64,000 bases of DNA from an uncultured Ignavibacteria bacterium (GTDB taxonomy: Bacteria; Zixibacteria; MSB-5A5; WJJR01; JAJRUJ01): NCBI GenBank assembly GCA_964461835.1, contig CAYWVO010000010.1:2775-66774 (forward strand), read 5' to 3'. The position numbers were made by a program, and so were the translations under genes. Under the pieces are notes generated by a model that saw only the letters and a program-made list of their open reading frames with translations, did no database searches and was not told the origin of the DNA. Below, piece by piece: positions 25,090 to 57,354 of the stretch (the first letter of the stretch is position 1; every line of letters starts with the position of its first letter).

Positions 25090-26709
25090 TCACGGACAGG
25101 GATCGCAGAGAGCATCCTGGCTTTGGTAGACAAACGCAACCAAATACTGTACATCCAGAGGATCAACGCCGTCGTCACAGTTCACATCCCCGACCTCATA
25201 CAGGCAGGCTGTTTGCAGACAACGCGCATCTTGACCTTGATAAATATATTTGACCAAGAACTGTACATCGAGTGGATCGACTCCGAGATCGCAATTCGTA
25301 TCGCCCCAGACCCCGCACTGACATTCATCGCAGGCATCACCGAAACCATCGCCGTCCGAATCAACTTGATCGGGATTTTCAATATTTGGGCAGTTGTCGC
25401 AGGCAGAGCCGATACCATCGGAATCAGGATCGTCCTGGTTGGGATTCACAACGTCGGGGCAGTTATCGCAGGCATCGCCCAATTGATCGCCGTCCGAATC
25501 AGTTTGATTGGTATTCCAAACTGACGGACAGTTGTCGCAGACATCCCCGGCACCATCACCATCACTATCCTCTTGGCCGACATTGGGCATTAGTACACAA
25601 TTGTCAAGATCATTTAATATACCGTCGTTATCGACGTCATCTGAAATAAGCAGTTGTATTTCATGCGATTCCCACGACCCCCAATCGGCATCGCCGGATT
25701 GAATGCTGTACCAGCTATCACTTATCCCGAAATATACGGACGAACCCTCTACCGCACCCTCGTCACGAACCGTAAATATATCATCTCCATAAACATGAAC
25801 AACAAAAGAACCACCGGTCGAAACAGTTGTTTGCCCGCATAGTGTTCCTTGCTCATCGTATGCCGAAAGAATTGACCCCGCAGGAGGATTCGAAGGGGCG
25901 CCTGCCGACCAAAAATCACAGACCCAGGGAGTAGGGATTATCTCCTCGCCCACGGTGTTGGGATTATTGCCGACAATGGAAGGTAACACAGTATTCCCCA
26001 CCGTGGTTGGGTAAGTCAATTCGGTCGCGGTGCCTACCCATATGTAATACCCATAACCTGTTCTGAGATCGACAAGGTCATTTAGATTGCCTGGTCGCAA
26101 AGTATCGTAGGAGCGGGCGCCATTCTCGCAATCAAAACCAAAAACAAGGTTATAATTCCCTTGAATCGGTGAGAGGGCATGTTGCAGATTGTCCGGCGGA
26201 TTGAGGTAGGAGACCATATTTATCCCGGCGCAAAGTCGGATGGTTATCCCGGCGGTAGCTGATCCTCCGAATACGCCCCCACTATTTACGAGATATCCGT
26301 GCATGTTATCAACCAATTGTAAGTCATTGAGTTCGTCGGGGCGCGCCTGATCCCAGCTCACCCACCCAATGTCACAGATGATCGTACTGATGTAAGTGAC
26401 ATTGTATGCGTTGGCCATGCTCTCTACTAGGGCAATTCCGGAACCAAAATTGGCCGAGATCAGCGACCAATAGCAGTACTCGGAACTTGTCACCGCGCTA
26501 TTCGCCGTTAGGGAGAATTGACTGAGAGCAGTCGCATCCCAATCTGAGCTCGCCGAAATCTCGGACTTCGCCAATTCTGACGTCGTTTCTTTGGGATGCT
26601 CTGCAACTATTTTTTTGGGGAGTTCATCGCCCAATGCACCATACGCAACGCATACCGCAATTACAAGATTACCAAGGAACCAACCCAGATAACGGGGACT
26701 GTTGTACAC
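25090..26709 (-). CDS. Membrane-anchored/secreted protein with thrombospondin type-3 (DxDxDGxxDxxD) repeats and C-terminal dockerin
   Basis: GTG start with a GGGGGAG SD. N-terminal [25 protein letters not shown]3-like repeats [15 protein letters not shown] / [15 protein letters not shown] / [13 protein letters not shown] / [12 protein letters not shown] (25324..25641). Dockerin repeats [22 protein letters not shown] and [22 protein letters not shown] (25093..25323). Confidence 0.8.
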
Positions 26710-36964: not shown

Positions 36965-37380
36965 AAGATTTTCCCTTCTTCCACCGTCTCTTCTGCGCAA
37001 ACTCAGTGCCGCCAATTAGCGGCGCCGACAAATTCCTCAGTTAATTCCCGCTCACCGGAGCTTCTGGAAAACTGTTCTCATTGTGTTAAGCTACAACGAG
37101 TTACAAATCCAGCACTTGTCCGGTGAGTTTTGATGGTTCGATCCACTTGTGCAGGTGAGTCTGCGGTCCGTTCGCCCAGTGCAGTTTCATGCGCATGTGG
37201 TCCTTCATCTGCAAATCCCTGCGCGCATGAGGCGGTTGCTCGATATGGATGCGGCCACAGAACAGCACCGCCGGGAGAACGAGATGTCTACTGTGATGCA
37301 CCATAGCCCCTTCCGGACCTCGCCCAAAGATAGTGATTTGAGGATGGTTTGACAAGAAATCAATCACCCGGAGAGTACCA

Positions 37381-41830: not shown

Positions 41831-41864
41831 AAACAAAAAAGCGGGGATCACGTGTGATCCCCGC
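41831..41864 (-). terminator. Rho-independent terminator closing the 57354..41887 operon (possibly bidirectional)
   Basis: Palindrome GCGGGGATCAC-GT-GTGATCCCCGC (41841..41864). On the minus strand it is followed by UUUUUUGUUUGUGG, 23 nt after the stop at 41887. It sits between convergent genes. Confidence 0.8.
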
Positions 41865-41886
41865 CAATTCCGTTTACGCAAATACC

Positions 41887-43842
41887 TTACGGTAACGGCT
41901 CTTCAAACCAATCGAGCATGACTCTAAACACCTCGATCATTGGCTCATACTCGAAGCCGTAAGGCGAAGTGCCAAACCACGCGGTCTTAAATACAGGATT
42001 GAGTACACTTGGGCCGATGTTCCGTGCTGCGACAACTTTCTCATGGGGGAAAGCCGTTCCGGCATACCTGCTCTGGTACAGGTAGAGCGCCTCGGCATTC
42101 ACGCCCAGGACCAGAAAGTTCGTTGCCGGAATGGTCTTGAACCGGAAGCCTTTCGGCACATTGTAGTAGTCCCGAATCACGCCGGGGATGAGATACTGAC
42201 CCGTACGCGCCGTGTCGACCGAAAGCGAAGGAAGGATACCGACAAAAGGTTCAGCCGGCAAGGCGCCGACGAAATCATCTTTACCCGGAATGAATTGCGT
42301 GCCTTCCGGCGGGAAACTCGATTTATAGAACCACGGAACATAGATTTCCTCAACGTCCGTGTAGAAGGAGGCAAATTGACCGCTCGGGTGCACCGTCGGG
42401 GAACTAATTCTGTTGCGCGGATCGTCGTCGTTATTGAGGAAACAGTTCCGTCCGAACACCCACAACTTGCCGCCAATGTTCAGATACCGGGCCAGTTGAC
42501 TGTGCACAGACGTCGGGATGACAGTGGCGTCATCATCATCCATGTAGAACACCAGTTCATACTGGCAGAATTTTTCGATCGGGATATCGATCGTTTGCTG
42601 GGGATCCCAGCGACGGATGAAATCCGGCGAGTCTTGATCGAGATCAATGCTGCCATTGGTCGCATCACGAAGCAAATTGAACACGTTTGCGATAGCGAGC
42701 GTGTCGTCTACCCCCCCCGAGATACCTGATCCCGCCGGGATGATTGGCACGGTGAACAGGTTGTAGTTAATGTCATCCACGATAAGAATACGGCGTTCCA
42801 GATGGGCATCGACGACTTTCAGGACCGCTTGTGAAGGCGTTGGATCGGGCGCGAACGCGTCATCCCGCGTCTGTACTTCAAAGAGAAAATATCCCACTCT
42901 CGTGGTAGCGGATTCCGGTTGGTTGCGCCACAAATCAATCAGCAGTGTTTGCTTAGCGGTGGTCCAGATGCCTTCCGGACGGCGTATCCACCCCTCGGAG
43001 GTCAGGGAATCTCCGGAATCGAGCGCCAATGAATTGGCGAGCGTATCTACCTCTGCTTCGCTGTTGAATGGGCCAAACAGACGCCACCGGTATTCAAAAT
43101 CCGGCTGCGTGCGCGGGTAATCCGAGGAGTCCGATCCGCTCCACTGCACAGATATCCCCGGATAAATCGGTGTCCGGCGAGCGATACTGATGTGGGTAAT
43201 GTTCTCCAGAAGGACGCTGTTCTCAATTTTCGTCTGCGGCCAGTGGTTGTTCCGCAGGTACTGCCGCCATTTAATGTCCGAGGAGGCCCCGTCGTCATCT
43301 ATCGCGCGGACGAACATATACTGTTGAATTGACTCCGAGACACAGTTCAAAGTGTCCTTAATGGTCACGGTATCCCCGTCAATAACCTCAAACCCAATTG
43401 AGTCGATATCACAGTCGATTGACCAGATGGTGTCGCCATCCTCGTTAACGCCAATTGCCACCTCATTCGTGTCGAATGAAGCAAAGAGACGGACTTCACC
43501 ACGGGTAGCCGTTTGAACCGAATCCACCCAGATATTGATCCAGTCATATTCGTCCTCGGGTGTGGTAAGGATGTAATCATCCGGATTACCGACTTCGAAG
43601 TCCCGCTTGACCGCGTACTGGTACTGTTCAATGGTTCCATCGTTATCCGTGCCATACCAGTAGATGGTCGGATTTCGCGAAAAGGTCGTTCCGTCAACCG
43701 GAATATTGGCGAAGAAAACTTCCGGCGGATTGTTATCCGGCGGCTCTCCTTCGTTAGTGAGTTTTCCGCACCCGGCGGCAAATAAAACGCCGATGACGGC
43801 GATCGTGAGCAACAGGTGAAGTTTCCGATACATCCTCAACAC
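41887..43842 (-). CDS. Large lipoprotein of unknown function (last gene of the OM module)
   Basis: MLRMYRKLHLLLTIAVIGVLFAAGC-GK lipobox. N-terminal half has Ig-like units with ...IYWYGTDNDGTIEQYQYAV... / ...DFEYRWRLFGPF.... The C-terminal half begins RRILIVDDINYN...YELVFYMDDDD...YLNIGGKLWVFG, resembling the VLVVDDD...YLDGGGSLFMTG region of the M6 protease at 31191..34007. Confidence 0.75.
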   Translation of the reverse strand: MLRMYRKLHLLLTIAVIGVLFAAGCGKLTNEGEPPDNNPPEVFFANIPVDGTTFSRNPTIYWYGTDNDGTIEQYQYAVKRDFEVGNPDDYILTTPEDEYDWINIWVDSVQTATRGEVRLFASFDTNEVAIGVNEDGDTIWSIDCDIDSIGFEVIDGDTVTIKDTLNCVSESIQQYMFVRAIDDDGASSDIKWRQYLRNNHWPQTKIENSVLLENITHISIARRTPIYPGISVQWSGSDSSDYPRTQPDFEYRWRLFGPFNSEAEVDTLANSLALDSGDSLTSEGWIRRPEGIWTTAKQTLLIDLWRNQPESATTRVGYFLFEVQTRDDAFAPDPTPSQAVLKVVDAHLERRILIVDDINYNLFTVPIIPAGSGISGGVDDTLAIANVFNLLRDATNGSIDLDQDSPDFIRRWDPQQTIDIPIEKFCQYELVFYMDDDDATVIPTSVHSQLARYLNIGGKLWVFGRNCFLNNDDDPRNRISSPTVHPSGQFASFYTDVEEIYVPWFYKSSFPPEGTQFIPGKDDFVGALPAEPFVGILPSLSVDTARTGQYLIPGVIRDYYNVPKGFRFKTIPATNFLVLGVNAEALYLYQSRYAGTAFPHEKVVAARNIGPSVLNPVFKTAWFGTSPYGFEYEPMIEVFRVMLDWFEEPLP

Positions 43843-43933: not shown

Positions 43934-44825
43934 CCCTTTAAAACGTGAGCCGGAAGGTGAAGCGGTCGACATCACCCAAAACGCCCATGTCCTGCCGGGC
44001 GTAGTCCGCCTCCAGGCTCCGCTCGCCCAGCGGCAACCGGAAGCCCAACCCCCAGGTCATCCCCGACAGGTCGTGCTCAAACCGGTCACCAACCCGCAAG
44101 GCAAACATGTCGTTATACCAATATTCCAACCCCGCGTTGTACTTCTCCAAATTGTCCGACGGATGGGACCCCTCCATCGCAAACGTCGCCCGATGCCGCT
44201 CACCGTCCAACACATCGATCGCCGCACCAAAATGAAAGTTGATCGGCAACGGATACTCCTGCGAAATAAACGTCATGTCCGGACCAAAATTCGTAATCAC
44301 CATCGTAATCTTGAAGTTCCGAAACCCCGTGTTATAGTTGGTCCCCACGTCCGCCGCCCAACCGGTCGCACGCTCCTCCTCGTACAACTCGTCGATCACC
44401 TTCGCCGTCACCCCCAGCGAAAAACGGTCCGTCAAATACCGACTGTACGATACCCCAAACGCGTAATCCTTCGCCGAAAAGGTCCACCCCGGCGCACCCA
44501 GCGGGTACTCATACGTCGTCACCGACATATCCCCCGCCGATAAATTGTAAAACGAAAAACCCAGCACCCCGCCAAAATCCAGCGGCAACGCCAGACCCGC
44601 AAACCCGTAGTTGATCTCCGCCGGATACTCAACCCAGGTCAACACCACTTCCCGGCCGCCCAGCTGCACCAGACCCGCCGGATTGTAATACAACGCCGAG
44701 GCATCGTCCGCCACCGCCACAAACGCGCCGCCCATGCCGTCCGCACGCGCCGATACCCCAATCTCTAAAAACTGTGCACCCGTCGTACCTACCTTCGCCT
44801 GACCGTACACCAACGACGGCGCAAC
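43934..44825. repeat. 892-bp perfect direct repeat, copy 1 (partner 47599..48490)
   Basis: I compared the two copies line by line at an offset of 3665 nt and all 892 positions are identical. Identity starts 4 nt beyond the stop codon. It ends inside the signal-peptide coding region (codon 22/23), where A reads g at 44826 and B reads c at 48491. Confidence 0.95.
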
Positions 44826-44888
44826 GAGAAGCAATGCTGCGGCGCACATACCTACCACGAAGGATTTCAATTTCGGGCTCATACTCAC
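43938..44888 (-). CDS. PorV/PorQ-family-like outer-membrane beta-barrel, copy A
   Basis: GTG start, signal MSMSPKLKSFVVGMCAAALLLVAPSLVYG-Q. N-terminal GTTGAQFLEIGVSARADGMGGAFVAVADDASALYYNPAGL matches the PorV pattern (FL.I..dARa.gMG.a.vA...Da.s...NPA.l). Gly/Tyr-rich strands. The C-terminal ...RFTFRLTF ends in Phe. Confidence 0.65.
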   Translation of the reverse strand: MSMSPKLKSFVVGMCAAALLLVAPSLVYGQAKVGTTGAQFLEIGVSARADGMGGAFVAVADDASALYYNPAGLVQLGGREVVLTWVEYPAEINYGFAGLALPLDFGGVLGFSFYNLSAGDMSVTTYEYPLGAPGWTFSAKDYAFGVSYSRYLTDRFSLGVTAKVIDELYEEERATGWAADVGTNYNTGFRNFKITMVITNFGPDMTFISQEYPLPINFHFGAAIDVLDGERHRATFAMEGSHPSDNLEKYNAGLEYWYNDMFALRVGDRFEHDLSGMTWGLGFRLPLGERSLEADYARQDMGVLGDVDRFTFRLTF

Positions 44889-44932
44889 CGACTCCTTATC
44901 ATCACAGATTCACAATACTCTTCTCTACCCTT

Positions 44933-47572
44933 CTACTTAATGATCACGAGTTTCCCGATGTCGGTCCCCTGTTCGGATTCAATCGTATAGAGGTAAATTC
45001 CCGACACCACCGCCTGCGTGTTCTTGGAGATCAAGTCCCAATAGGCCTTGGAATCCGTATGCGAGAACGGCGCACCTTCATAATGTTCAATCTCTCGGAC
45101 GAGATCGCCGTCCAGGCTGAAGATTTTGATCGTGGCCTCCGAGGGCAAATTAACAAAATGAATGCGTCGGTCGCGTTCAGTCCAGCCCTCGCGGTTGGGA
45201 TCTTCGTATTGCCGCCCGCGATAATTGGCTGAAATCTTGTAGGGATTGGGATACACCGAGACCTCCAACCCCAATGATTCCGCCACGGCGGCTGAATAGG
45301 CCGGAAACGCCCGCTCCGAGTTCACCATGGGCGAGGACTCCAGCGGCTCCAGGTCATTCTGCGGGAAGCCAAAGTCAAATGCGGTCACCGCAAAATAATA
45401 CGATTCCGACGGCAACAGGTTGTCGATGGTGAACCGGTATTTACCGTACTGCAGCGTATCGTTGGTCGCTTCATCTACTGAATCGATAAGGGCTACCCGT
45501 TCAATGGGATTCTCAACTTCAACTCCGTGTTCCATGTAGGTATTGCCGCGGTTCCAGTCCTCTTTCTCGAAGTAGTACCGCTGGCTGCCCTCTGCCGTGT
45601 AATGTGTAAACGGATTTTCTTTGTTCGGATACTGTGTCGGATCGAAGTCGGGATCGTCAAACAGGGTGCGCAATTCTTCCAGCGTCAACGGGTGGTCCTT
45701 GTATACCCACCGGTCATCCGAACCGATTTGTGCCGTCATATCTTCCCGGAACGGCCGGAAGTCGACTATATCCCACGAGGCGATCAGGGCGAAGCTGTTG
45801 ACCTGATTCATATCGCCCATGTAGACCCGATATCCTTCGAAGTCATTCAGGAAGCTGAACGGATCGGCGGTCAATTCCGTCGTCGATCCGTACCATTCAA
45901 TTTCCACCTGTCCGGGTAGTGTGGTGATGTGCAGCTTCGGAGATTGCGGTGGGGGGGGGCCGGAGTAATCCGGAATACCATCACCCGCATACCAAACTGT
46001 ATCACAGCCATAGCAGACAACCGAATCACCAATAACGGAATCCTGGCAATTCGCGAGATACCTCAATCCGCGGCATTCATCGGCGACGCCGGTAATCGGA
46101 TCGGGTGTGCTGATTCCCGGGTTATCGAAAACCCAGGCCGCCCAGCGGGCGTTCACTGCCAGGTCCGTAAAGTCGATGTTGTCATTAAAGGTCCACGGAT
46201 CATCAGGAAGGTTTTCAGCATTATCGGGCTTCAGGTGGAAGTCCTCACCCGCGACATAACCGATGGTTACCTGCAGAGAATCGGCAACACCAATTTCGAA
46301 CGGGCCAAAAGACAGGAGATAACGCGTATCGTACCCATCGGCAAATGTCCGCGCCTGACTTTCGTGGGGCGGCAACCAGCCCTCATCCGAAAAGTCTTGC
46401 GCGGAGAAGACCTGGTCATAATCAAACTCGTTGTTGGACATATACCGATACTTATGTGCATCCCCGTCCGGGGTGCCCAGACCGCCGGAAATATTGCGAT
46501 CACCCGGCAATCGTTGCGGTCCCCAGTCCAGGTTGGTCTGCCCGTGTGAGTTCCACCAGTTAAAAGAATAATCAATGGGTCGCGGACCGCAGCCCCCCGG
46601 CGGAGTAGGTGAGCGTACCACGCGGGTCCCGGTCACCGCTTTGGGCGACCGATAATCAAAGACGCCACCGCTCGGGTCACCGTCATTATCGCTAATCCAG
46701 GCAATGTTAATCGTGTCCTGTGCGGGTTCGGATTCTCCACAGGGGATTGCCCCGGACAAACTCGGCACCGTCTCACGGAAACCACAAATATCATCCTGAA
46801 AACCGTTTAGCGTCGATGCATGGTACACGTCCGCATCAATATAAACTCCCATGTATAGTTTGCTGAGGCTGTCCTCACCGATGTTCTTGATGGTAAAATC
46901 AAGCAGGACAAAATCCTGGGCGTATGAATACGACCAGGCATACGACTTTTGAATGATTTTTAATCCTAATGGAACGTGAGGACCAGTAAAAGGATCAGGA
47001 GATACATATGCCTGATCGGTTAGTGTGTCTGTGTATTCGGCGATGAAGTCTTGTTCGGAGACTGCATCCTCCGAGAAGTTCGGGTTGCCGGGACGATTGG
47101 TCAGTTCGCGAATAATCCCCCCATTTTCGATGGTCTCCGGATACATCTCCGCGATATGCTGCCAACCATCATGGCCGGTCGAGGTCAGCGTATCAATCCC
47201 GCGAATGGCGCTAATCCAGAGGGCGCCCTGAAAAAGATAGTCAATGCTTGAACCGGCGGGGAATTCCGCCCCCACACACAGGCCGGTAACGTCATCGCAG
47301 AATTCACGGTCTTGACTGCCGAAGAATCCCCAGTTGGTCACGGAAAGATAGAAGTTGCCAACGTTATGGGTACGCAGGATCGTGTTTGGAACCTGCGCAG
47401 ACTTCGTCAATTGATGCTTATCAGAGATCGTGGTATTCTCACCATCAATATATTTTAGTCGAGCAGCCCCGGGCCGGGCCAGGCACGCGACCATCAATAG
47501 ACATGTCCCAATTCGAACCGCCAACCGCATAATATCCCCTTTCCGGAAACTCCTGATCTCTCGCATCGTCAT
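44933..47572 (-). CDS. ~870-aa secreted protein family member, paralog 1, with variant T9SS-like C-terminal domain
   Basis: Signal-like N-terminus (MRLAVRIGTCLLMVACLARPGAA). Alignable along its whole length with 48611..51262 and 51334..53934 (e.g. HNVGNFYLSVTNWGFFGS / HKVGNVWMTITNYGIFGS / HRVGNVWMTITNYGFFGS; FPAGS..YL.QGALW). C-terminal VYPNPYKISANYRG...RRIHFVNLPSEATIKIFSLDGDLVREI...VVSGIYLYTIES...GKLVIIK. Confidence 0.85.
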   Translation of the reverse strand: MTMREIRSFRKGDIMRLAVRIGTCLLMVACLARPGAARLKYIDGENTTISDKHQLTKSAQVPNTILRTHNVGNFYLSVTNWGFFGSQDREFCDDVTGLCVGAEFPAGSSIDYLFQGALWISAIRGIDTLTSTGHDGWQHIAEMYPETIENGGIIRELTNRPGNPNFSEDAVSEQDFIAEYTDTLTDQAYVSPDPFTGPHVPLGLKIIQKSYAWSYSYAQDFVLLDFTIKNIGEDSLSKLYMGVYIDADVYHASTLNGFQDDICGFRETVPSLSGAIPCGESEPAQDTINIAWISDNDGDPSGGVFDYRSPKAVTGTRVVRSPTPPGGCGPRPIDYSFNWWNSHGQTNLDWGPQRLPGDRNISGGLGTPDGDAHKYRYMSNNEFDYDQVFSAQDFSDEGWLPPHESQARTFADGYDTRYLLSFGPFEIGVADSLQVTIGYVAGEDFHLKPDNAENLPDDPWTFNDNIDFTDLAVNARWAAWVFDNPGISTPDPITGVADECRGLRYLANCQDSVIGDSVVCYGCDTVWYAGDGIPDYSGPPPPQSPKLHITTLPGQVEIEWYGSTTELTADPFSFLNDFEGYRVYMGDMNQVNSFALIASWDIVDFRPFREDMTAQIGSDDRWVYKDHPLTLEELRTLFDDPDFDPTQYPNKENPFTHYTAEGSQRYYFEKEDWNRGNTYMEHGVEVENPIERVALIDSVDEATNDTLQYGKYRFTIDNLLPSESYYFAVTAFDFGFPQNDLEPLESSPMVNSERAFPAYSAAVAESLGLEVSVYPNPYKISANYRGRQYEDPNREGWTERDRRIHFVNLPSEATIKIFSLDGDLVREIEHYEGAPFSHTDSKAYWDLISKNTQAVVSGIYLYTIESEQGTDIGKLVIIK

Positions 47573-47598
47573 GTCGACATCCTTTACGTCGCTCGGAT

Positions 47599-48490
47599 CC
47601 CTTTAAAACGTGAGCCGGAAGGTGAAGCGGTCGACATCACCCAAAACGCCCATGTCCTGCCGGGCGTAGTCCGCCTCCAGGCTCCGCTCGCCCAGCGGCA
47701 ACCGGAAGCCCAACCCCCAGGTCATCCCCGACAGGTCGTGCTCAAACCGGTCACCAACCCGCAAGGCAAACATGTCGTTATACCAATATTCCAACCCCGC
47801 GTTGTACTTCTCCAAATTGTCCGACGGATGGGACCCCTCCATCGCAAACGTCGCCCGATGCCGCTCACCGTCCAACACATCGATCGCCGCACCAAAATGA
47901 AAGTTGATCGGCAACGGATACTCCTGCGAAATAAACGTCATGTCCGGACCAAAATTCGTAATCACCATCGTAATCTTGAAGTTCCGAAACCCCGTGTTAT
48001 AGTTGGTCCCCACGTCCGCCGCCCAACCGGTCGCACGCTCCTCCTCGTACAACTCGTCGATCACCTTCGCCGTCACCCCCAGCGAAAAACGGTCCGTCAA
48101 ATACCGACTGTACGATACCCCAAACGCGTAATCCTTCGCCGAAAAGGTCCACCCCGGCGCACCCAGCGGGTACTCATACGTCGTCACCGACATATCCCCC
48201 GCCGATAAATTGTAAAACGAAAAACCCAGCACCCCGCCAAAATCCAGCGGCAACGCCAGACCCGCAAACCCGTAGTTGATCTCCGCCGGATACTCAACCC
48301 AGGTCAACACCACTTCCCGGCCGCCCAGCTGCACCAGACCCGCCGGATTGTAATACAACGCCGAGGCATCGTCCGCCACCGCCACAAACGCGCCGCCCAT
48401 GCCGTCCGCACGCGCCGATACCCCAATCTCTAAAAACTGTGCACCCGTCGTACCTACCTTCGCCTGACCGTACACCAACGACGGCGCAAC
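47599..48490. repeat. 892-bp perfect direct repeat, copy 2 (partner 43934..44825)
   Basis: See copy 1. The offset is exactly 3665 nt. Flanks diverge immediately: a/t at 43933/47598 and g/c at 44826/48491. Confidence 0.95.
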
Positions 48491-48556
48491 CAATACTACT
48501 GCACTCAATACAACCGCACATGTCACGAGTTTCCGCATTGTCCTCACTCCACTCAC
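47603..48556 (-). CDS. PorV/PorQ-family-like outer-membrane beta-barrel, copy B
   Basis: GTG start. The signal peptide MSGVRTMRKLVTCAVVLSAVVLVAPSLVYG-Q differs from copy A only before ...LVAPSLVYG. The remaining 293 residues are identical because the DNA is identical. Confidence 0.65.
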   Translation of the reverse strand: MSGVRTMRKLVTCAVVLSAVVLVAPSLVYGQAKVGTTGAQFLEIGVSARADGMGGAFVAVADDASALYYNPAGLVQLGGREVVLTWVEYPAEINYGFAGLALPLDFGGVLGFSFYNLSAGDMSVTTYEYPLGAPGWTFSAKDYAFGVSYSRYLTDRFSLGVTAKVIDELYEEERATGWAADVGTNYNTGFRNFKITMVITNFGPDMTFISQEYPLPINFHFGAAIDVLDGERHRATFAMEGSHPSDNLEKYNAGLEYWYNDMFALRVGDRFEHDLSGMTWGLGFRLPLGERSLEADYARQDMGVLGDVDRFTFRLTF

Positions 48557-48610: not shown

Positions 48611-51262
48611 CTATTTGATCACCACAATCTTGCCAACTTGTGTCCCTAACTCCGATTCAATGGTGTACAGGTAAATTCCGGAGACAATCGCCTGAATATT
48701 CCGGCTCACCATATCCCACGCCAGATGGGAATCCGAATCCGAGAGATTCGGATGGGGATGCTGCAGTTCACGCACCAGGTCGCCATCCAACGAGAAGATT
48801 TTGATTGTCGCTTCGGACGGCAAGTTAACGAAATGGATCCGCCGGTCGCGCTCCGACCATCCTTCCTTGAACGGATCTTCATAGCCCATCCCACGGTAGT
48901 CTTCCGAAATCTTATAGGGATTCGGATAGACCGCCACCGCGAGTCCTTTTTCCTCGACCACGTCCGCCGAATACGCCGGATAGGCCAAATACGAATTGGC
49001 AATCGGCGAGGATTCCAGCGGCTCCAGGTTGGTCACCGGATTGCCGAAATCGAACGCGGTTACGGAGAAATACATGGGCTTGCTTGGCAACAGATTATCA
49101 ATTCGCGCCTCATACACCCCGTATTTCAATTCCCGAACGGCCAACGTGTCATTGACATAGAAGGTGTCCACGTACAGCTCTGATCCAGTCCGTAGGATAA
49201 TATTGCTTACTGAATCTTCCCGCGGCCCCGGGTATTTATTCGCCAGATTGTTGTCCATCGGGACAAAATAAAAGGTCGAGTCAACCCCCTCCGTCGTCTG
49301 GACGAACACGTTGTCCGGCGAGTCATACAGTTCCGGATCGAAATCTTCCCCATACATCTCGCGCAATTGTTCCACGGTCAGCGGATCAAGTCGTTGGAGA
49401 AATTCGTTGCGCGATGCATTATATTCCAACCGTTTGTAATCGACCTTGTCCCACGACGCAATCAGCGACATTGCATTGATGGTGTTCAATTCGCCCATGT
49501 ACAGCCGGTAGCCTTCCCAGTCACGGCGGTTGGTAAAATCATCCGGGGTTAATTCCGACTCCCGACCGATCCAGCGGATAATCATTTCGCCAGGGTCCAC
49601 GACTTCGGTGACAAATTCCGGCGACGGCGGCGGCGGTGGTCCTTTAAAATCCGGAATGCCGTCACCGGCATAGTAGAATGAATCGCACTGGCTGAGCACC
49701 ATGGAATCACCGACAAACTGCGTGTCCAGACAGTTGACCAAATAGAACAGCCCCTTACAGCCATCCTGCTCGCCGGTAATCGGGTCGGGGGTGTCCACGC
49801 CCGGATTATCAAATACCCAGGCGGCCCATTGCGCGTTCACCCCGAAATCGTTGAAATTGAGCTTGTCGTAGAAAACCCAAGGTTTGCCGGCATCGAAGAA
49901 TCGATCAAAATCGTCGGCGTTGACATGGAAATTATCGCCACCAATGTAGCCAACGGTGATGTTTGTTGAATCTCCCGGTCCCATGTCTGCCAGCGGACCG
50001 AAGGAGAACAGATATCGTGTGTCGTAGCCATTGGCAATGTTGGAGGCCAGTTGTTCATTGGTGGGAGCCATCCAATTCGTTGAATCGGAGAAGTCAATCG
50101 CGGCAAACAACTGATCATAGTCGAATTCACGATTGGACATAATGTAGTATTTGTTGGGATCTCCCGCCGGGGTCCCTTCCCCCCCGGTTCCGTAATCCCG
50201 ATGGCGCCGGCGGTCCCGCGGGCCCCAGTCGAAACGGGTATCCGATTCGGATGTCCACCAGTTAAAAGAATAATTCAACGGCGCCGGCCCGCACCGGTCG
50301 GGTTCCAGCGGACCTCGGACAACACGGGTGCCGGCCACTGCAGTGTTGCTGCGGAAATCAAACGCTCCCCCAAACGGGTCACCGTCATTGTCGGCAGTCC
50401 AGGCAATATTAATCGTATCCATCAGGCCGGGATAATTGGAGGGCACGGCAAACTTATAGCCGGAGTAGTCGTCGCGAAAACCCTCCGTGGACAGGCCCAT
50501 CGCCCGGTTCCAGCAGTCGGCATCGACATACAGCCCCATATAAGCGCTCTTCAGGCTGTCTTCCTGCGAAATGTTAAAGATGGTGAAATCGAGCAGGATA
50601 AAATCCTGTGCGTACTCATACGACCAGGAATAACTGCGTTGCCGCACCTTGATATTCAGCGGCTGGTGGGGCCGGCCATCGTACGGATCGGGATCGATAT
50701 ACGACGTCGAGGTCATCGTATCGGTATACTCGGCGATATGATCCCACTCGGAGATGGCGTCCTCCGAATAATATTCGGATGATTTTCGGGTCGTCCGGGT
50801 AATGATTTCACCTTCCGGAATGTGGTCGGGATACATTTCATTAATCCGCATCCACCCGTCCGAACCAACCGTCACCAGAGTGTCAATCCCCACGACCGCG
50901 CCGAACCACAACGCACCAGCGTAGAGGTAATTCGAACCCGATCCTGCCGGGAATTCGAAGGAGGGCGCCGGGCTGCCGTCCGGCTCCAGCAATTCATCCC
51001 ACTGGTCCATAAAGTTAGAACCGAAAATCCCGTAGTTGGTAATGGTCATCCAGACATTGCCCACCTTGTGAGAGCGGTTCATCACGTTGGGAACACCGGC
51101 AGCAACTTTCCCCAATTCGACTTGTCGATTCAAATACCGCCGATGGGAATCGGGTACGTCATTTATCGCCCATGCTTGCCCGGTGAAAAGCACCACGATA
51201 GCCACGGCGAGTATACCCATGACCCGTTGACCTCGTCCCTCGTGTATCCGAAAGGTACCCAT
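48611..51262 (-). CDS. ~870-aa secreted protein family member, paralog 2, with variant T9SS-like C-terminal domain
   Basis: Signal MGILAVAIVVLFTGQAWA. Same family as 44933..47572 and 51334..53934. C-terminal VYPNPYKISEDYRG...RRIHFVNLPSEATIKIFSLDGDLVREL...IVSGIYLYTIES...GKIVVIK. Confidence 0.85.
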   Translation of the reverse strand: MGTFRIHEGRGQRVMGILAVAIVVLFTGQAWAINDVPDSHRRYLNRQVELGKVAAGVPNVMNRSHKVGNVWMTITNYGIFGSNFMDQWDELLEPDGSPAPSFEFPAGSGSNYLYAGALWFGAVVGIDTLVTVGSDGWMRINEMYPDHIPEGEIITRTTRKSSEYYSEDAISEWDHIAEYTDTMTSTSYIDPDPYDGRPHQPLNIKVRQRSYSWSYEYAQDFILLDFTIFNISQEDSLKSAYMGLYVDADCWNRAMGLSTEGFRDDYSGYKFAVPSNYPGLMDTINIAWTADNDGDPFGGAFDFRSNTAVAGTRVVRGPLEPDRCGPAPLNYSFNWWTSESDTRFDWGPRDRRRHRDYGTGGEGTPAGDPNKYYIMSNREFDYDQLFAAIDFSDSTNWMAPTNEQLASNIANGYDTRYLFSFGPLADMGPGDSTNITVGYIGGDNFHVNADDFDRFFDAGKPWVFYDKLNFNDFGVNAQWAAWVFDNPGVDTPDPITGEQDGCKGLFYLVNCLDTQFVGDSMVLSQCDSFYYAGDGIPDFKGPPPPPSPEFVTEVVDPGEMIIRWIGRESELTPDDFTNRRDWEGYRLYMGELNTINAMSLIASWDKVDYKRLEYNASRNEFLQRLDPLTVEQLREMYGEDFDPELYDSPDNVFVQTTEGVDSTFYFVPMDNNLANKYPGPREDSVSNIILRTGSELYVDTFYVNDTLAVRELKYGVYEARIDNLLPSKPMYFSVTAFDFGNPVTNLEPLESSPIANSYLAYPAYSADVVEEKGLAVAVYPNPYKISEDYRGMGYEDPFKEGWSERDRRIHFVNLPSEATIKIFSLDGDLVRELQHPHPNLSDSDSHLAWDMVSRNIQAIVSGIYLYTIESELGTQVGKIVVIK

Positions 51263-51333: not shown

Positions 51334-53934
51334 TCATTTGATTATGACAAATTTGCCTACCTGCGTGCCGGTTTCGGCCTCTACGGTGTAAAGGTACATG
51401 CCGGACACGATTGCCTGCGTGTTTTTCGTGATCAAATCCCAATAGGCGGTGGAAGTGGTTTCGGTAAACGGTTGGCCCGGCCCGTGTTGGATTTCCCGGA
51501 TTATGTCGCCGTCCAGCGAATAAATGGTGATCTTCGCCTCAGCGGGAAGATTAACGAAATGGATACGACGGGAACGCTCCGACCACCCGGAACGATCACG
51601 ATCTTCATAGCCCCGCCCCCGGTAATCAGCGGAAATCTTATACGGGTTGGGATACACACCTACCTTCAAGCCTTCTTCGACAACCCGGTCGGCCGAGTGG
51701 CTGGGAAAGGCCAACGCCGCGTTGATCAACGGCGATGATTCCAGGGGGGCCAAAATTTCGCGGTTACCGTAATCGAACGTGGTGACGGCAATATAATACG
51801 GCTGTGACGGGAGCAAATTGTCAAATTCGATCTTATACTCACCGTACGACAGCAAAACACTATCCTCATCTCTGAATTCTACCGTGTTGACCCGCTCAAT
51901 CCGGTTATAGACCGTATCAGTGCCGTTAATGTCTGCAATATTCCCTTGGTTCCAATCCTGCGGTTCAAAATAGAACAGGGAGTCGTGCGCATCACGAAAC
52001 GGGTCGTCCGGAGAGCCGTAGCGGTTCGGATCAAAATCTTCGCCGTACCATTTCTTCAACGTATCCAGCGGTACGGGATACAGTTCCTGCGTCCACTTGT
52101 CGGAGGACGGATTATAATCATAGCGCCGAAAATCGATCAAATCCCACGAGGCGACCAGGGCGTAGTTGGTCAGGGTGTTGAAATCCGCCACATAGACCCG
52201 ATATCCCTCAAAATCGGGACGCAGCGTGAAATCATCCGGGGTAAGCTCCGATTCCCGCCCGTTCCAGCGAACGGTGAGTCGCCCCGGGCCGGCCTGAATG
52301 TTCAGATCGGGTGCCGGCGGGGGCGGCGGCCCTTCGAAATCGGGAACTCCATCACCAGCATACCATACCGTATCGCAGTCGGCCAGCTCAACGGTATCAC
52401 CCGACGGGATCGTATCGCGGCAATTCACCAGGTAAAACAAGCCCGCACAGCCGTCCTCGTCCGTGTCCACGCCCGGGTTATCAAAGACCCACGCTGCCCA
52501 TTGGGCGTTGACCGCGAAATCAGAAAAATCGAGTTTTTCGTAAAACGGGTTCGGATCGAGTGGATCAAAATACTCTTCAAAATCGTCGCCGCCGACATGG
52601 AAATTTTCTCCGCCCACATAGCCCACCGTGACGTACGTCGACTCACCCGGCGCCATGTCATCAAGCGGGCCAAAAGAGAACAGGTACCGCGTATCATATC
52701 CATCGGCGATATCGGTGGCCAATCCCGATTGTTTGGGAGCACGCCAATCGGTGGAATCGGAAAAATCAACGCCGGAAAACAACTGATCGTAATCAAATTC
52801 TCTATTCGACATGATGTAGTATTTATTCAAATCACCGGCCGGCGTCCCATCACCGCCCGTGCCGTAATCGCGGTAGTTGGTCTTTTTGCGCGGACCCCAA
52901 TCAAATCGCGTATCGCCATTGGAGGTCCACCAATTAAACGAATAATTCAGCGGCGCCGGCCCGCAGAGTTCCGCGTCTGACGGACCCCGCACCACACGCG
53001 TTCCCGAGATCCCCGTAGGGCTCATGTAATTAAAAATACCACCAGAGATCGGATCACCGTCGTTATCGGCCGTCCAGGCGATATTAATGGTATCTTGCAA
53101 ACCCGGATACGGGGACGGCACGGTCCGCAGATATCCGGAGTAATCATCCGCATACCCCGTACCCGGCGACGCCTCATGCCAGCAGTCGGCGTCCACATAC
53201 AGCGCCATGTATGGTTTTTCGATGACCTCGTCACTGATGTTTTGCAGAATAAAATCAATCAGAATAAAATCCTGCGCATAATCATACGACCAGGAATAGC
53301 TCTTCTGGGTAATGCGCAGACCGATCGGGAGGTGCGGCCGTCCGGCGTCAGGGTCCGGCGGCACAAATGACTGATCCGTCAGTGTGTCTGTATAGACCGC
53401 GATGTAATCCTGTTCCGAAACTGCATCCTCCGAAAAATACTCCGACGATTGACGATTGGAGAGTTGAATGATCTCTCCCGCCGCTCCCTCGTCGGGAAAC
53501 GTCTCGTTGATAGGTTGCCAGCCATCGGCGCCCACCGAAACCAGCGTATCGTACCCCTTGATCGCGCCAAACCACAAGGCGCCTTGAAACAGGTAGTTAA
53601 TTCCCGATCCCGCCGGAAATTCAAATGAGGGCGCCGGCTGCCCGGCGTAGGGCCCCACCTGCTCCGTTAACTGGTTCTGGCGGAATTGACTGCCAAAAAA
53701 ACCGTAATTGGTAATGGTCATCCAAACATTACCGACACGATGGCTCCGATTTTGTACATTCGGAATCGCTGTGGTCTTACCCAACTGCTCACGCATCTCA
53801 TGTTCGGCGGTGGGGTCTTCTTTCATGCGGGCTGAGGCGGGTTGTATCATCACAAATAAAAGCGGGACGAGAAGGACCCCGACGATGCCGCGGCACCGGT
53901 TCCTCATACCCATTGTGCTCCTCCAGACATTCAT
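51334..53934 (-). CDS. ~870-aa secreted protein family member, paralog 3, with variant T9SS-like C-terminal domain
   Basis: Signal GIVGVLLVPLLFVMIQPASA. Closest to paralog 2. C-terminal VYPNPYKISADYRG...RRIHFVNLPAEAKITIYSLDGDIIREI...IVSGMYLYTVEA...GKFVIIK. Confidence 0.85.
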   Translation of the reverse strand: MNVWRSTMGMRNRCRGIVGVLLVPLLFVMIQPASARMKEDPTAEHEMREQLGKTTAIPNVQNRSHRVGNVWMTITNYGFFGSQFRQNQLTEQVGPYAGQPAPSFEFPAGSGINYLFQGALWFGAIKGYDTLVSVGADGWQPINETFPDEGAAGEIIQLSNRQSSEYFSEDAVSEQDYIAVYTDTLTDQSFVPPDPDAGRPHLPIGLRITQKSYSWSYDYAQDFILIDFILQNISDEVIEKPYMALYVDADCWHEASPGTGYADDYSGYLRTVPSPYPGLQDTINIAWTADNDGDPISGGIFNYMSPTGISGTRVVRGPSDAELCGPAPLNYSFNWWTSNGDTRFDWGPRKKTNYRDYGTGGDGTPAGDLNKYYIMSNREFDYDQLFSGVDFSDSTDWRAPKQSGLATDIADGYDTRYLFSFGPLDDMAPGESTYVTVGYVGGENFHVGGDDFEEYFDPLDPNPFYEKLDFSDFAVNAQWAAWVFDNPGVDTDEDGCAGLFYLVNCRDTIPSGDTVELADCDTVWYAGDGVPDFEGPPPPPAPDLNIQAGPGRLTVRWNGRESELTPDDFTLRPDFEGYRVYVADFNTLTNYALVASWDLIDFRRYDYNPSSDKWTQELYPVPLDTLKKWYGEDFDPNRYGSPDDPFRDAHDSLFYFEPQDWNQGNIADINGTDTVYNRIERVNTVEFRDEDSVLLSYGEYKIEFDNLLPSQPYYIAVTTFDYGNREILAPLESSPLINAALAFPSHSADRVVEEGLKVGVYPNPYKISADYRGRGYEDRDRSGWSERSRRIHFVNLPAEAKITIYSLDGDIIREIQHGPGQPFTETTSTAYWDLITKNTQAIVSGMYLYTVEAETGTQVGKFVIIK

Positions 53935-54006: not shown

Positions 54007-57000
54007 TTAGAAATTCACTCCCAGGCCGACCCGGATGTTGCGTCCCGCACCGTAATTAGTCGGCGCATCATCCGACTCGAGGCCGGTATATACGATACCG
54101 TCAATGTTGAGCGCGGTATTCGGGCGACCAGTCGCACCGTACACGTTGTCGATGTTCTTGGTGTCGAAAATGTTGTTGACCCATACTTCAAACGAATACC
54201 GGAGATTCCAGATCGCGAAATCCTTGTTGAAACGGACGTCGACCGTTGACGAGGCCGGCATCCGCTCGGAGTTCGGCAACGGATCTTCACCCGGCACCAG
54301 TGTTTCCGCGGTGCCCGGGTGTTCCCGTGAGGGTGTGTACGGGAAGCCGGAACCATACTGCCAGAGGATATTCAAGCCCCAGTTGTCCGGCAATTTCAAA
54401 CCGAACAGCCGCGGATGATCCCCGGGGGGGATCCGCAAGTCAAGGTTTAATGTCAACTGGTGCCGAACGTCCCAGTCCAGCGGGGACTCCTGAATAGGAA
54501 TGTCGCGGTTGTAGTAGTTGTCGTAGTAGTTCGACGATTCCGAAGAGGACTTCCCGTAGGCGAACGCGTAGTTATACGTCGCGTAACCTGAGGTGTAGTT
54601 TCCGTACTTCTTTTCCAGCTCCAGCTCGAGACCCCGGGCCCGCGCATAGTCATGGTTTTCATAGACGTTGCGCGAGATCGGCCCGATGTTCTCAATCGTG
54701 GTGTTGATTAGCCCGAAGTCGTCTTTGTAGAAGCCTTGAATCGACAGCACGTACTCCGGCGACATCGCGTACTGAACACCAAACTCATACTGGATGGTCT
54801 TTTTATAGTCAATATTGGAGTTGCCGATAATCCCGAAGGCGTTGGAGGCCTGCGAGGCCCGCTTGTACATGTAATCCAGGTCGGGCATCTGATAAAAATG
54901 CCCGTAGTTGAAGAAGACCTTCGCCTTATCGGAGATCGGATAGGAAAACGCGATCCGCGGGGAGAATTTATCCTGGCGGTCGATAATCTCTTTCTCCTCC
55001 ACGCTCTGTTTTTCCTGTTCATCTTCAACCGCCTCGACATCCTGAATGAAGAAATCGTAACGGAACCCGAGGTTCGCCACCATCTGGCCGTACTCCATCT
55101 TGTCCCGGACATAGAACGCGCCGGTCAGCGGCTCACGGACATAGAAGTCACGGAAAGTGCCGCGCTCCGGCCATGGCCCGCCATCCGGATAGCCGTCATA
55201 CGGATAATAGGGGTACTGCAGCTCGCCCATATTCAGCGAGTTATTGGTCAGTTTGAAACCGGTCTTGACTTCATGCTCTTTGGCCAATTGGCTGGTGAGG
55301 TCAACGTTAAAAGTGGTAATCTGCAGATCTCGCTCGTGCCAGAGGGCCCATTGATTCCAGCCGAAATCCCAGAATCCATCCGCCGGGTCCCATTTGCCGT
55401 TACCATTCACATCCGTGAACGGTTCACCCAGATCATACTTAAAATTGGGCGGATCATAAATGCCGTTACCATTCAAATCCTGATACGGGATATTCATCAT
55501 CCAGGGATCGTCCGGGCCGTCATAGCGGGAATTCCGCGAGAGGTCTTGATATGGTTCACCGAACTCGTACCCCAGCAGCCATGAATCCCAGACACCGTTG
55601 TTGTTGACATCCGTGAACGGTTCACCCAGCGAGTGGTCGCCGTCGACATAGGGTTCCGGCTGATCCTGGTTTACCGGACGGCCGCGTTCCGGGTTGTAAG
55701 TGCCGTCATTGTTGGAATCAAAGATCAGCACGTCGCCGGAATCCCAGCGTCCGTTGTTGTTGGCATCGACAAACGGTTCGCCGCTGTCCGGATCGTACTT
55801 GCCGTTGTTGTTGAAATCATACACCAGAGAGTCGGAGGTGGCGTCCGGGAAATTCGGATCAGGGGGATCGTACCGGCCGTTCGGGATGTTATCCAGGTAG
55901 ATATCACCAAAATTGTAGTTTGGATCACCCGTAAAGAGGTTGGTATCCGGCCATTCGTTGATGAACTCTTCCGGAGGATCATAGACAGCATTGTTGTTTC
56001 GGTCCTGGAAGCTTTCCCACTGATCATACAGCAGGAAGGCATCCGGCCGTTGCCGCCCGCCCGGCGTATTCGGATCGCCCGGCATCTGTGAATACAGCCG
56101 GCTGTACCGGGAGAGAATCACCTGGTAGTACGTCGATTTATTCACGTTATGGAGGAACGTCAGAGAAAAGCGATCGTTGTGATCCTCAATCCAGCCCACC
56201 GTGCCCGGCGTGTAGCGGTAGGCCCAGCCATACCGGTCTTCGGAAGGCATCCGACGTTCCCAGGACCCTTTCCAGTTGAAGGTCAGGTGCATGTCCGGCG
56301 TCATGCGATAGTTGATCTTTACCCCGGCATTGGCGGCGTTGTCCTGACGATCTTTGATTTTGAGGCCAAGGAATTTCACTTCACGGAAATCAGCGCGACG
56401 GGATATAGAAGTGACTTCGTTGTACGGGAAATACGTGTCGTGCCGTTCGATGTCCCCGGTAATATTATAGAACAGTTTTCCGCGGAACAGCGGTCCCACA
56501 TCCAGTCCCCAACCGGACAACGGTTCCGGACCACCGAGGTTGAATTCCACCCGGTCATAGTTGAAGGAGTTGGCATTCAAATTTTCCGTGCCGAAATCGT
56601 CCGTCCACAACTGGAAATGACCGGAAGTAATCCGCCGACCGGACTTGGTCGCCACGTTAATAACACCCGACGTGGCATTCCCGTACTCGGCGTCCCAGCC
56701 ACCTTTCAAGATTGACAGGTTCTCAATATCCTGACCGGAAAGGTTCAGCGATTCCGTTGGCCCACGACCACCGAGTGGGTCTTTCAATTCTACACCGTCA
56801 ACGATGTAGATCAACTCGTTGGCTCGGCCGCCACGGATATGGATTTGTCCGTCCCGATTGACCACGCCGACTTGGGTGCGCAAAATATCCTCGACATTGG
56901 TCACCGGCATACTCTGAATGCGTTCGGAGGTCACGGTCCGACGAGTCGAAGTCACGTCAACCTGAATGGTCTTTTTTTCCGACTGCACGACAATCGTCTT

Positions 57001-57354
57001 GTCGATGTCGAGTACGGCCTGGGAAATCTCCAAATTAATTTGCTCAGTCAGACCGGGCGAGATCGTCACATCAGTATATTCCAATGTTTGGTAGCCGATC
57101 ATCCTCACGATTACGGTATAAGTTCCCGCCGGCACCGCCTGGATTTGGAAACTGCCGTCCATATCGGTTAGGGCACCCAGGGTTGTCCCCGCTACCTGGA
57201 CCGGACAGTTCGGGACGGGTTCTTTTGTCTTGGCGTCGATGACCGTTCCGGCAATTTTACCGTGCGTCTGCGCCATGACTTGTGTCGAGGCAGCCACCAC
57301 GAGCAGTGCCGCGGCACAGATAAGCAAAAACTTTGCGCTTCCTCGATTAAGCAT
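54007..57354 (-). CDS. TonB-dependent-receptor-like outer-membrane barrel (Oar/SusC-like: CarboxypepD_reg + plug + barrel) with a DxNxNG repeat insertion
   Basis: Signal KFLLICAAALLVVAASTQVMA. Carboxypeptidase-regulatory-like domain GKIAGTVIDAKTKEPVPNCPVQVAGTTLGALTDMDGSFQIQAVPAGTYTVIV. Plug VTSERIQSMPVTNVEDILRTQVGVV...IHIRGGRANELIYIVDGVELKDPLGG. The C-terminal ...GAGRNIRVGLGVNF ends in Phe. About 240 aa (roughly residues 425-665) carry repeated GEPF(T/V)D.N.NG.(W/Y)D units. Confidence 0.85.
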   Translation of the reverse strand: MLNRGSAKFLLICAAALLVVAASTQVMAQTHGKIAGTVIDAKTKEPVPNCPVQVAGTTLGALTDMDGSFQIQAVPAGTYTVIVRMIGYQTLEYTDVTISPGLTEQINLEISQAVLDIDKTIVVQSEKKTIQVDVTSTRRTVTSERIQSMPVTNVEDILRTQVGVVNRDGQIHIRGGRANELIYIVDGVELKDPLGGRGPTESLNLSGQDIENLSILKGGWDAEYGNATSGVINVATKSGRRITSGHFQLWTDDFGTENLNANSFNYDRVEFNLGGPEPLSGWGLDVGPLFRGKLFYNITGDIERHDTYFPYNEVTSISRRADFREVKFLGLKIKDRQDNAANAGVKINYRMTPDMHLTFNWKGSWERRMPSEDRYGWAYRYTPGTVGWIEDHNDRFSLTFLHNVNKSTYYQVILSRYSRLYSQMPGDPNTPGGRQRPDAFLLYDQWESFQDRNNNAVYDPPEEFINEWPDTNLFTGDPNYNFGDIYLDNIPNGRYDPPDPNFPDATSDSLVYDFNNNGKYDPDSGEPFVDANNNGRWDSGDVLIFDSNNDGTYNPERGRPVNQDQPEPYVDGDHSLGEPFTDVNNNGVWDSWLLGYEFGEPYQDLSRNSRYDGPDDPWMMNIPYQDLNGNGIYDPPNFKYDLGEPFTDVNGNGKWDPADGFWDFGWNQWALWHERDLQITTFNVDLTSQLAKEHEVKTGFKLTNNSLNMGELQYPYYPYDGYPDGGPWPERGTFRDFYVREPLTGAFYVRDKMEYGQMVANLGFRYDFFIQDVEAVEDEQEKQSVEEKEIIDRQDKFSPRIAFSYPISDKAKVFFNYGHFYQMPDLDYMYKRASQASNAFGIIGNSNIDYKKTIQYEFGVQYAMSPEYVLSIQGFYKDDFGLINTTIENIGPISRNVYENHDYARARGLELELEKKYGNYTSGYATYNYAFAYGKSSSESSNYYDNYYNRDIPIQESPLDWDVRHQLTLNLDLRIPPGDHPRLFGLKLPDNWGLNILWQYGSGFPYTPSREHPGTAETLVPGEDPLPNSERMPASSTVDVRFNKDFAIWNLRYSFEVWVNNIFDTKNIDNVYGATGRPNTALNIDGIVYTGLESDDAPTNYGAGRNIRVGLGVNF

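Follow-up and report, generated by a model that had tools for sequence, protein, structure and literature searches.

Long-lasting cases of concerted evolution are reportedly rare among prokaryotes, and one survey recognised 26 genes (PMC6053082). The described cases comprise the tufA/tufB genes of Salmonella, the ribosomal RNA (rRNA) operons and the 26 "long-lasting" cases of Wang and Chen 2018 (PMC6053082, PMC5485169). Conversion between the Salmonella tuf genes is RecA-dependent, aborts at the ends of the homology or of the gene, and occurs at 2e-8 to 2e-5 per generation (PMC5485169). Here we describe a further pair, found in a 64,000-nucleotide (nt) stretch of DNA (the window; contig CAYWVO010000010.1, positions 2,775 to 66,774, assembly GCA_964461835.1) of an uncultured Ignavibacteria bacterium that is placed among the Zixibacteria by GTDB. 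Two genes of this window, encoding the PorV-like proteins PorV-A and PorV-B, are identical over 892 nt and enclose P1, one of three paralogous genes (P1, P2 and P3). The PorV copies are very probably old tandem paralogues that have been recurrently homogenised by intrachromosomal gene conversion, i.e. that undergo concerted evolution.

The pair shares several features with the tuf and rRNA cases. The paralogues are closer within a genome than the orthologues are between genomes, the similarity includes synonymous sites, the duplication predates speciation as judged from synteny, the tracts end where the homology ends, and the product would be part of a multi-protein machine. Unlike those cases, the copies are direct repeats situated 2.7 kb apart in one operon and separated by a single gene that has escaped conversion, and they encode an outer-membrane barrel of an uncultured phylum, whereas the known genes have core roles in information processing or energy supply. 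Intragenomic recombination also homogenises genes for outer-membrane proteins in pathogens, on a short time scale, e.g. in Helicobacter pylori (bab/hop; PMC3960876; PMC6053082). The copies in those systems are dispersed and give rise to antigenic or adhesin variation among strains, whereas the uniformity of the PorV pair is kept across many species.

Of the barrels belonging to the T9SS (type IX secretion system), PorV is the shuttle for type A C-terminal domains and PorQ is the anchor of PorZ (PMC5562754, PMC10994853). The barrels of the window resemble them in family membership (NF033709/PF19572), in a predicted fold that is nearest to PorV of Flavobacterium johnsoniae, and in having neighbours with type-A-like C-terminal domains. 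They differ from T9SS PorV in falling below the equivalog cutoffs and in their size, i.e. ~295 amino acids (aa) in the mature form vs 345-402 residues in the solved F. johnsoniae PorV structures. Furthermore, they are encoded in Zixibacteria, not Bacteroidota, and share their operon with genes for a SusC-like TonB receptor and a putative lipoprotein; this operon is also found without any P gene. In F. johnsoniae, proteins with type B C-terminal domains are linked to cognate PorP/SprF-like barrels (PMC12618676, PMC9143113). There, as in the locus described here, a secreted protein with a C-terminal domain adjoins its own barrel gene, in several copies per genome. However, the barrels of the present locus are of the PorV/PorQ and not the PorP/SprF type, the C-terminal domain belongs to another type, and the barrels are identical, while those of F. 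johnsoniae are divergent and cargo-specific. Literature searches gave no relevant paper on gene conversion of PorV or on type IX secretion in Zixibacteria.

The repeat pair and its flanking paralogues

Base-by-base comparison at an offset of 3665 revealed that window positions 43934-44825 and 47599-48490 agree at 892/892 positions, with 100-nt blocks outside the repeat at the same offset showing 14-35% identity, which is the random level. An independent repeat search of the window returned the identical pair. The copies are direct repeats with P1 between them; both lie on the minus strand, within two open reading frames (ORFs) of 316 and 317 aa with GTG starts. The 3′ edge of the repeat is placed 4 nt past the TAA stop codon (stops at 43938-43940 and 47603-47605), and its 5′ edge falls at codon ~20-22 of each ORF, within the signal peptide. 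The protein region common to PorV-A and PorV-B begins ...VAPSLVYGQAKVG and is preceded by differing N-terminal parts (MSMSPKLKSFVVGMCAAALLL vs MSGVRTMRKLVTCAVVLSAVVL). The differences are confined to the first ~20 residues, and the mature proteins are identical. An earlier note on this DNA had claimed the 892-nt identity, these edges and a difference limited to the N-termini, and the comparison of the sequences and of the ORFs confirmed all three.

The P paralogues show a different pattern. Pairwise synonymous sites of P1, P2 and P3 are saturated (proportion of synonymous differences, pS, 0.74-0.81), and the longest exact match between any two of them in the window is 14-21 nt. A 29-aa stretch of the C-terminal domain, ERDRRIHFVNLPSEATIKIFSLDGDLVRE, is identical in P1 (45092-45178) and P2 (48767-48853), both on the minus strand, but 21/87 nt of its coding sequence differ, which points to purifying selection, not conversion. 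The earlier note had described this stretch as carrying many synonymous differences, which agrees with our count, although its coordinates were slightly off; its view of an old P duplication under purifying selection is upheld by the saturated synonymous sites and by the differences underlying the 29 identical residues. Next to P paralogues saturated to this degree, a perfect match of 892 nt cannot be chance.

PorV-A passes the cutoffs of the PorV/PorQ family (NCBIfam NF033709, 215.9 bits vs 90; Pfam PF19572, 34.8 vs 27) and lies below those of the equivalogs PorV (NF033710, 81.4 vs 250), PorQ (NF033711, 109.8 vs 220) and PorV2 (NF052325, 82.8 vs 325). Its AlphaFold model has a predicted local distance difference test (pLDDT) score of 83.7, and the top PDB matches of the model are F. 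johnsoniae PorV structures 8gl6_F and 6h3i_F (E 1.7e-16 and 5.5e-13, respectively; template modelling (TM) score 0.73-0.75), followed by FadL/TodX barrels. Both proteins are thus predicted to be outer-membrane beta-barrels of the PorV/PorQ family with a FadL-like fold. No exact protein was found in the sequence collection for the ORFs with GTG starts; the collection contains the ATG form, of which the 314-aa version is P0001.

PorV copies and P paralogues in related genomes

The order P2-PorV-P1-PorV was also identified in five or six assemblies of the window's own clade, in the related loci L066, L069, L117/L118, L126/L127, L039/L046 and L143, whose PorV proteins show 80-96% aa identity. Orthologues of P1, P2 and P3 form three cross-genome clades spanning at least six assemblies, and the P duplications are therefore older than these lineages. 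In L143, a 78.9-kb scaffold, two complete PorV copies are identical over 911 nt, and the perfect repeat extends from the signal peptide to 5 nt past the stop codon, with boundaries as in the window. Identity begins at the same signal-peptide position as in the window in L069, L126/L127 and L039/L046.

Site patterns were compared between the window and L143. At 155 sites neither copy of one genome matches either copy of the other (concerted pattern), and 5 sites show the orthology (copy-specific) pattern, all 5 in the flanks. The flank of copy A with the ribosome-binding site and the start (GATAAGGAG..GTATGAG.CC) is recognisably orthologous in the window and L143, unlike that of copy B, and the signal-peptide starts sort by position across relatives (M.PK for copy A, MRK/MKK for copy B). 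Between the window and its relatives, PorV genes differ by a synonymous divergence (dS) of 0.6-0.87 and a nonsynonymous divergence (dN) of 0.06-0.13. Hence nothing holds the synonymous sites fixed, and constraint is not the source of the within-genome identity. Set against this dS, the 0/892 differences in the window show that its last homogenisation is at least ~100-fold more recent than the split from the nearest sampled relatives.

These distances bear on two other explanations. Purifying selection acting on the nucleotides themselves, e.g. on an embedded RNA or regulatory element, could keep two copies alike without recombination, but nothing beyond the identity itself speaks for it. Between orthologues, 13-27% of nucleotides differ, with synonymous sites accounting for most of the changes, and every between-species substitution is present in both copies, so we give this explanation practically no chance. 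The earlier note had also allowed for a very recent duplication of PorV alone, which would have inserted a copy between P2 and P1 in the lineage of the window. Perfect identity bounded by the gene would fit such an event, as would the existence of a layout that lacks the middle PorV (Pa-Pb-PorV in L020). However, the shared gene order is present in relatives as distant as the dS values given above, copy A has a 5′ flank and a signal-peptide start whose orthologues are recognised in other genomes and which are unlike those of copy B, and the event would have had to recur independently in at least 15 genomes at one site. This alternative is therefore rejected as extremely improbable.

P3 varies among the close relatives. 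It is reduced to an 81-aa remnant in one of them (L143 5595-5840; L118 5963-6076), absent in L127, and intact in L119 and L046, which indicates that the P copy number turns over within the window's clade. The loci L067 and L119, derived from the same sample (95.6% over 226 nt), were not counted as a within-genome pair, as they possibly represent different strains.

The sister clade was scanned using one genome per species, and the operon core was seen there with 0, 1 or 2 P genes. Ten GTDB species genomes (L001, L003 and L006-L013, with L001, L008 and L012 being long-read assemblies) carry two P genes, Pa and Pb, in the order TonB receptor-Pa-PorV-Pb-PorV-X651, where X651 stands for the gene that closes the operon. 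For nine of these genomes, nt identity of the PorV copies amounts to 98.1-100% within a genome and to 73-94% between genomes; the PorV ORFs of the tenth, L012, are frameshifted and were left unscored (~2-3% mismatches). Protein identity between Pa and Pb of one genome is 60-70%. In the tree of P proteins, Pa and Pb each form a cross-species clade of their own, made up of orthologues from eight species, whereas the PorV tree always joins the two copies of one genome. Site patterns of five species pairs comprised 54-217 concerted sites and 0 copy-specific ones. The earlier note had proposed a comparison of orthologous loci, and in every two-copy relative compared the within-genome PorV copies cluster together.

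The tracts of the sister clade also have a characteristic shape. Their 3′ end is always within 7 nt (<=7 nt) of the PorV stop codon, while their 5′ end varies by lineage, reaching 0-561 nt into the 3′ end of the upstream P gene, which encodes the C-terminal domain. The farther from PorV, the lower the identity between Pa and Pb, which drops from 100% to 80-90% and then to ~60%. A fixed 3′ edge, a varying 5′ edge and decaying Pa/Pb identity together are the mark left by numerous tracts that arose independently and differ in length. The layout of L020 (see above) has no PorV between its P genes. In the long-read assemblies, the PorV copies of L001 (1.9-Mb contig) are 1.6% diverged and those of L008 show 0 differences.

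De Bruijn assemblies break exactly at the PorV repeat. The end of L004 equals the start of L005 over 1241 nt at 100%, and L039 and L046, from one metagenome-assembled genome (MAG) produced with MEGAHIT k141, have identical tails of exactly 141 nt, i.e. of length k, beginning at the signal-peptide boundary. L117/L118 and L126/L127 break at the repeat likewise, and L066 starts with the last 151 nt of the upstream PorV copy. P1 orthologues lie on ~3-kb "loop" contigs between two collapsed repeats (7/8). This breakage pattern supports the presence of two real, near-identical PorV copies.

It has to be weighed against the alternative that mis-assembly produced the identical pair from just one PorV gene or from two that clearly differ. 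Short-read assemblers do collapse and smooth repeats, and L143 appears smoothed relative to L117/L118: six synonymous PorV differences near the 5′ edge of the tract distinguish L117 from L118, whereas L143, from the same population, shows no such difference, its two positions (8643-8760 and 12328-12445) both having the copy-B variant. This discrepancy reflects either assembler smoothing or tract-length polymorphism. Nevertheless, a P1 gene flanked by the repeat on both sides is explained only by an A-R-B-R-C path, the long-read relatives L001 and L008 contain both copies at 98.4-100% identity, and many independent assemblies give the identical layout. An artefact of this kind is therefore very improbable. 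The repeat does, though, systematically break or smooth short-read assemblies and leaves P1 on ~3-kb orphan contigs, which affects both completeness and variant calling at the locus.

Probable gene conversion between the PorV copies

The observations match what is expected of concerted evolution. Similarity is higher within than between genomes and includes synonymous sites, the duplication predates the divergence of the genomes, and the converted tracts are discrete, with lineage-specific boundaries. The age of the duplication follows from the positional Pa/Pb and P1/P2/P3 orthogroups, from the orthology of the copy-A 5′ flank and from the conserved gene order. Recent or ongoing gene conversion on top of an old duplication, which the earlier note had suggested, is supported by the clustering of PorV copies by genome and of P paralogues by position. 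Unequal crossing-over was rejected as the homogeniser: it changes copy number and would be expected to duplicate or delete P1, yet P1 is single and conserved, for which reason gene conversion is preferred. It is plausible that the repeats could mediate deletion or amplification of P1, as the earlier note had suggested.

The following course of events may be proposed. An ancestral P+PorV unit would have been duplicated within a conserved operon encoding a TonB receptor, P, PorV and a lipoprotein. The P copies then diverged in sequence, and presumably in function, until no common stretch longer than ~20 nt was left; this divergence, presumably driven by selection to differ, would have removed the P genes from the reach of recombination. 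The PorV copies, under no apparent pressure to differ, would have kept recombining, with each conversion resetting their identity. The process would be non-reciprocal homologous recombination and, by analogy with tufA/tufB, probably RecA-dependent. Tracts stop where homology stops. The 3′ edge is fixed at the stop codon since the genes downstream of the two PorV copies are not the same, and in the window's clade the 5′ edge lies within the signal peptide because the upstream signal-peptide and intergenic sequences of the copies are unalignable.

The earlier note held that the locus does not look like a simple tandem duplication of the 3.7-kb unit. This stands insofar as an ancient event leaves the present identity unexplained; as to origin, however, the arrangement most likely began as a tandem duplication of a P+PorV unit, which is ancient and not the cause of the identity seen today.

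Several points weigh against recurrent conversion as formulated here. Short-read assemblers can smooth real differences, and the 0/892 of the window might hide a few. The 1.6% divergence of the long-read L001 shows that homogenisation is not always complete. The true within-genome identity of PorV therefore ranges over ~98.4-100%, and "perfect" is possibly a slight overstatement. Conversion is read from sequence patterns, and the role of RecA is suggested by the analogy drawn above. Finally, P trees set P1-P3 of the window apart from Pa/Pb of the sister clade, so that the P-PorV-P-PorV layout may have had a single origin or several.

Homogenisation could also be favoured by selection instead of being a neutral by-product. 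Both barrels would then have to fit the same partners, either the set formed by the conserved C-terminal domains of P1-P3 and their relatives, the barrel resembling a TonB receptor, and the lipoprotein, or a T9SS translocon; divergent copies would interfere, and lineages that keep converting would win. The persistence of identity across deep divergence in two clades is in keeping with this, as are the frequent co-conversion of PorV with the C-terminal-domain end of P in the sister clade and the identical 29-aa C-terminal-domain stretch that purifying selection keeps in P1 and P2. Moreover, most long-lasting prokaryotic cases concern members of protein complexes (PMC6053082), and PorV of known systems binds the C-terminal domains of its cargo via loops (PMC10994853; for binding also PMC5562754). 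On the other hand, neutral conversion alone is sufficient: by a rough estimate, point mutation in a tract of 900 nt does not clearly outrun conversion at the tuf rates (PMC5485169). One-to-one pairing is also not required, since both L020 and the P3-P2 part of the window have no PorV between P genes. In view of the sequences, the PorV-like barrel remains a putative partner of the P proteins, and selection for homogenisation is possible but somewhat doubtful.

At third codon positions the window's PorV copies have a GC content (GC3) of 73-74%, against 61-65% in the P genes, a gap of ~10 points. The mean PorV excess over neighbouring genes is +4.5 points in two-copy genomes vs +2.0 in single-copy genomes. 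GC-biased gene conversion was considered and rejected as a finding, the difference being not significant (one-sided Mann-Whitney p = 0.07) and the genomes not phylogenetically independent; the excess could reflect GC-biased conversion or an expression-level effect.

The process is a known one, and the locus adds an outer-membrane example from an uncultured phylum to long-lasting concerted evolution. It also offers an unusually clean natural experiment, in which, inside a single operon, the two copies of one gene are kept identical to each other in many species and the intervening gene and its paralogues are saturated at synonymous sites. From the edges of the tracts one can read the reach of conversion and the way in which a paralogue "escapes" it.

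Operon anatomy and neighbouring genes

The PorV genes belong to a seven-gene operon on the minus strand, which comprises genes for a SusC-like TonB receptor, P3, P2, PorV-B, P1, PorV-A and a putative lipoprotein, followed by a terminator (Table 1). Intergenic gaps in the operon are 30-95 nt. A promoter scan of the operon gave 13 matches vs 13.1 in shuffled sequences, and the one element to stand out is the terminator that follows the last gene.

Table 1. Positions of the operon genes and of the homogenised tracts in the window.
Feature	Position	Strand	Basis
SusC/RagA-like TonB-dependent receptor, operon gene 1 (CarboxypepD_reg + Plug + barrel)	54007..57354	-	Pfam, NCBIfam; syntenic in all related loci
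P3, 866-aa P paralogue, no PorV gene of its own	51334..53934	-	Sequence comparison, P tree
P2, 883 aa, paralogous to P1 with 51.7% aa identity, located upstream of PorV-B	48611..51262	-	Sequence comparison, P tree
PorV-B, 311 aa from ATG (MRKLV...); alternative GTG start 48556	47603..48538	-	Mature part identical to PorV-A
Unconverted 5′ end of PorV-B (signal-peptide n/h region)	48491..48556	-	Without similarity to copy-A 5′ end
Repeat copy B, homogenised tract in PorV-B	47599..48490	-	Exact identity to 43934-44825
P1, 879-aa secreted protein, T9SS type-A-like C-terminal domain, between PorV copies	44933..47572	-	Weak domain matches, model, P tree
PorV-A, 314 aa from ATG; alternative GTG start 44888	43938..44882	-	NF033709, PF19572, AlphaFold model
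Unconverted 5′ end of PorV-A (signal-peptide n/h region)	44826..44888	-	Without similarity to copy-B 5′ end
Repeat copy A, homogenised tract (signal-peptide end, whole mature PorV-A, stop, 4 nt more)	43934..44825	-	Exact identity to 47599-48490
X651, 651 aa, last operon gene, probably a lipoprotein (LFAAGC lipobox)	41887..43842	-	Follows PorV in nearly all related loci
Intrinsic-terminator-like hairpin (11-bp stem, then T run) closing the operon	41840..41865	-	Terminator scan

The C-terminal domains of P1-P3 scored below the cutoffs of TIGR04183 (20.2-20.8 bits vs 23) and PF18962 (Por_Secre_tail; 17.5-19.7 vs 27); in favour of such a domain, all three proteins have a YPNPY motif and an invariant Lys six residues from the C-terminus. 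In the P1 model (pLDDT 84.5), a seven-strand C-terminal sandwich is predicted, which likewise speaks for it. Sequence searches of Pfam, NCBIfam and PDB gave no family match for the 651-aa protein or for the bodies of P1-P3. The N-terminal beta-supersandwich of P1 loosely resembles accessory domains found in glycoside hydrolases and in phosphorylases, matching the N-domains of GH116, GH94 and dextran dextrinase as well as YidC P1. An assignment of P1 function from the predicted fold was rejected, as the matches were only partial (TM ~0.2) and no catalytic assignment is justified.

The core of the operon, TonB receptor-PorV-X651, is conserved across Zixibacteria-like MAGs, with 0, 1, 2 or 3 P genes between receptor and barrel, and homologues of the operon proteins come overwhelmingly from Zixibacteria MAGs. 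No described system matches this core of a SusC-like receptor, a PorV/PorQ-like barrel and a ~650-aa lipoprotein, and the locus draws attention to a conserved, uncharacterised operon that joins such a barrel to a SusC-like receptor outside Bacteroidota. The operon might specify an undescribed surface module of Zixibacteria, in which the SusC-like barrel and the lipoprotein are accompanied by the PorV/PorQ-like barrel as dedicated carrier or anchor of 0-3 C-terminal-domain proteins, the identity of the barrels is maintained by selection, and the C-terminal domain of the cargo is co-converted in one clade as an interaction unit. Although we hold this complete scenario to be unlikely, it would, if true, provide a case of long-lasting concerted evolution maintained by selection together with a type-A analogue of the type B cognate cargo-shuttle pairs.

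Further genes for proteins with type-A-like T9SS C-terminal domains were found in the window, in a Pfam screen that covered about a third of its ORFs. They encode a 997-aa S8 subtilase (34022-37015, minus strand) and a 567-aa FlgD_ig protein (37445-39148, minus strand), and both genes are syntenic in L066 and L143. From their sequences, these proteins suggest that the organism may use a T9SS-like export route.

The TonB receptor contains an insertion (window 55388-55629) of repeated Asp/Asn-rich motifs (EPF.D.N.NG.WD) resembling calcium-binding thrombospondin-type-3-like repeats. Elsewhere in the window, three diverged 69-nt tandem units with 65-72% identity were distinguished at 25322-25576, within a gene (25090-26709, minus strand) whose 539-aa product has matches to thrombospondin type 3 repeats. 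Convergent to the operon, on the plus strand (39440-41821), there is a gene whose 793-aa product resembles PMT_2 glycosyltransferases, being a membrane protein that bears a long tetratricopeptide repeat (TPR) array, and this gene is kept at the operon-adjacent position in L066 and L143.

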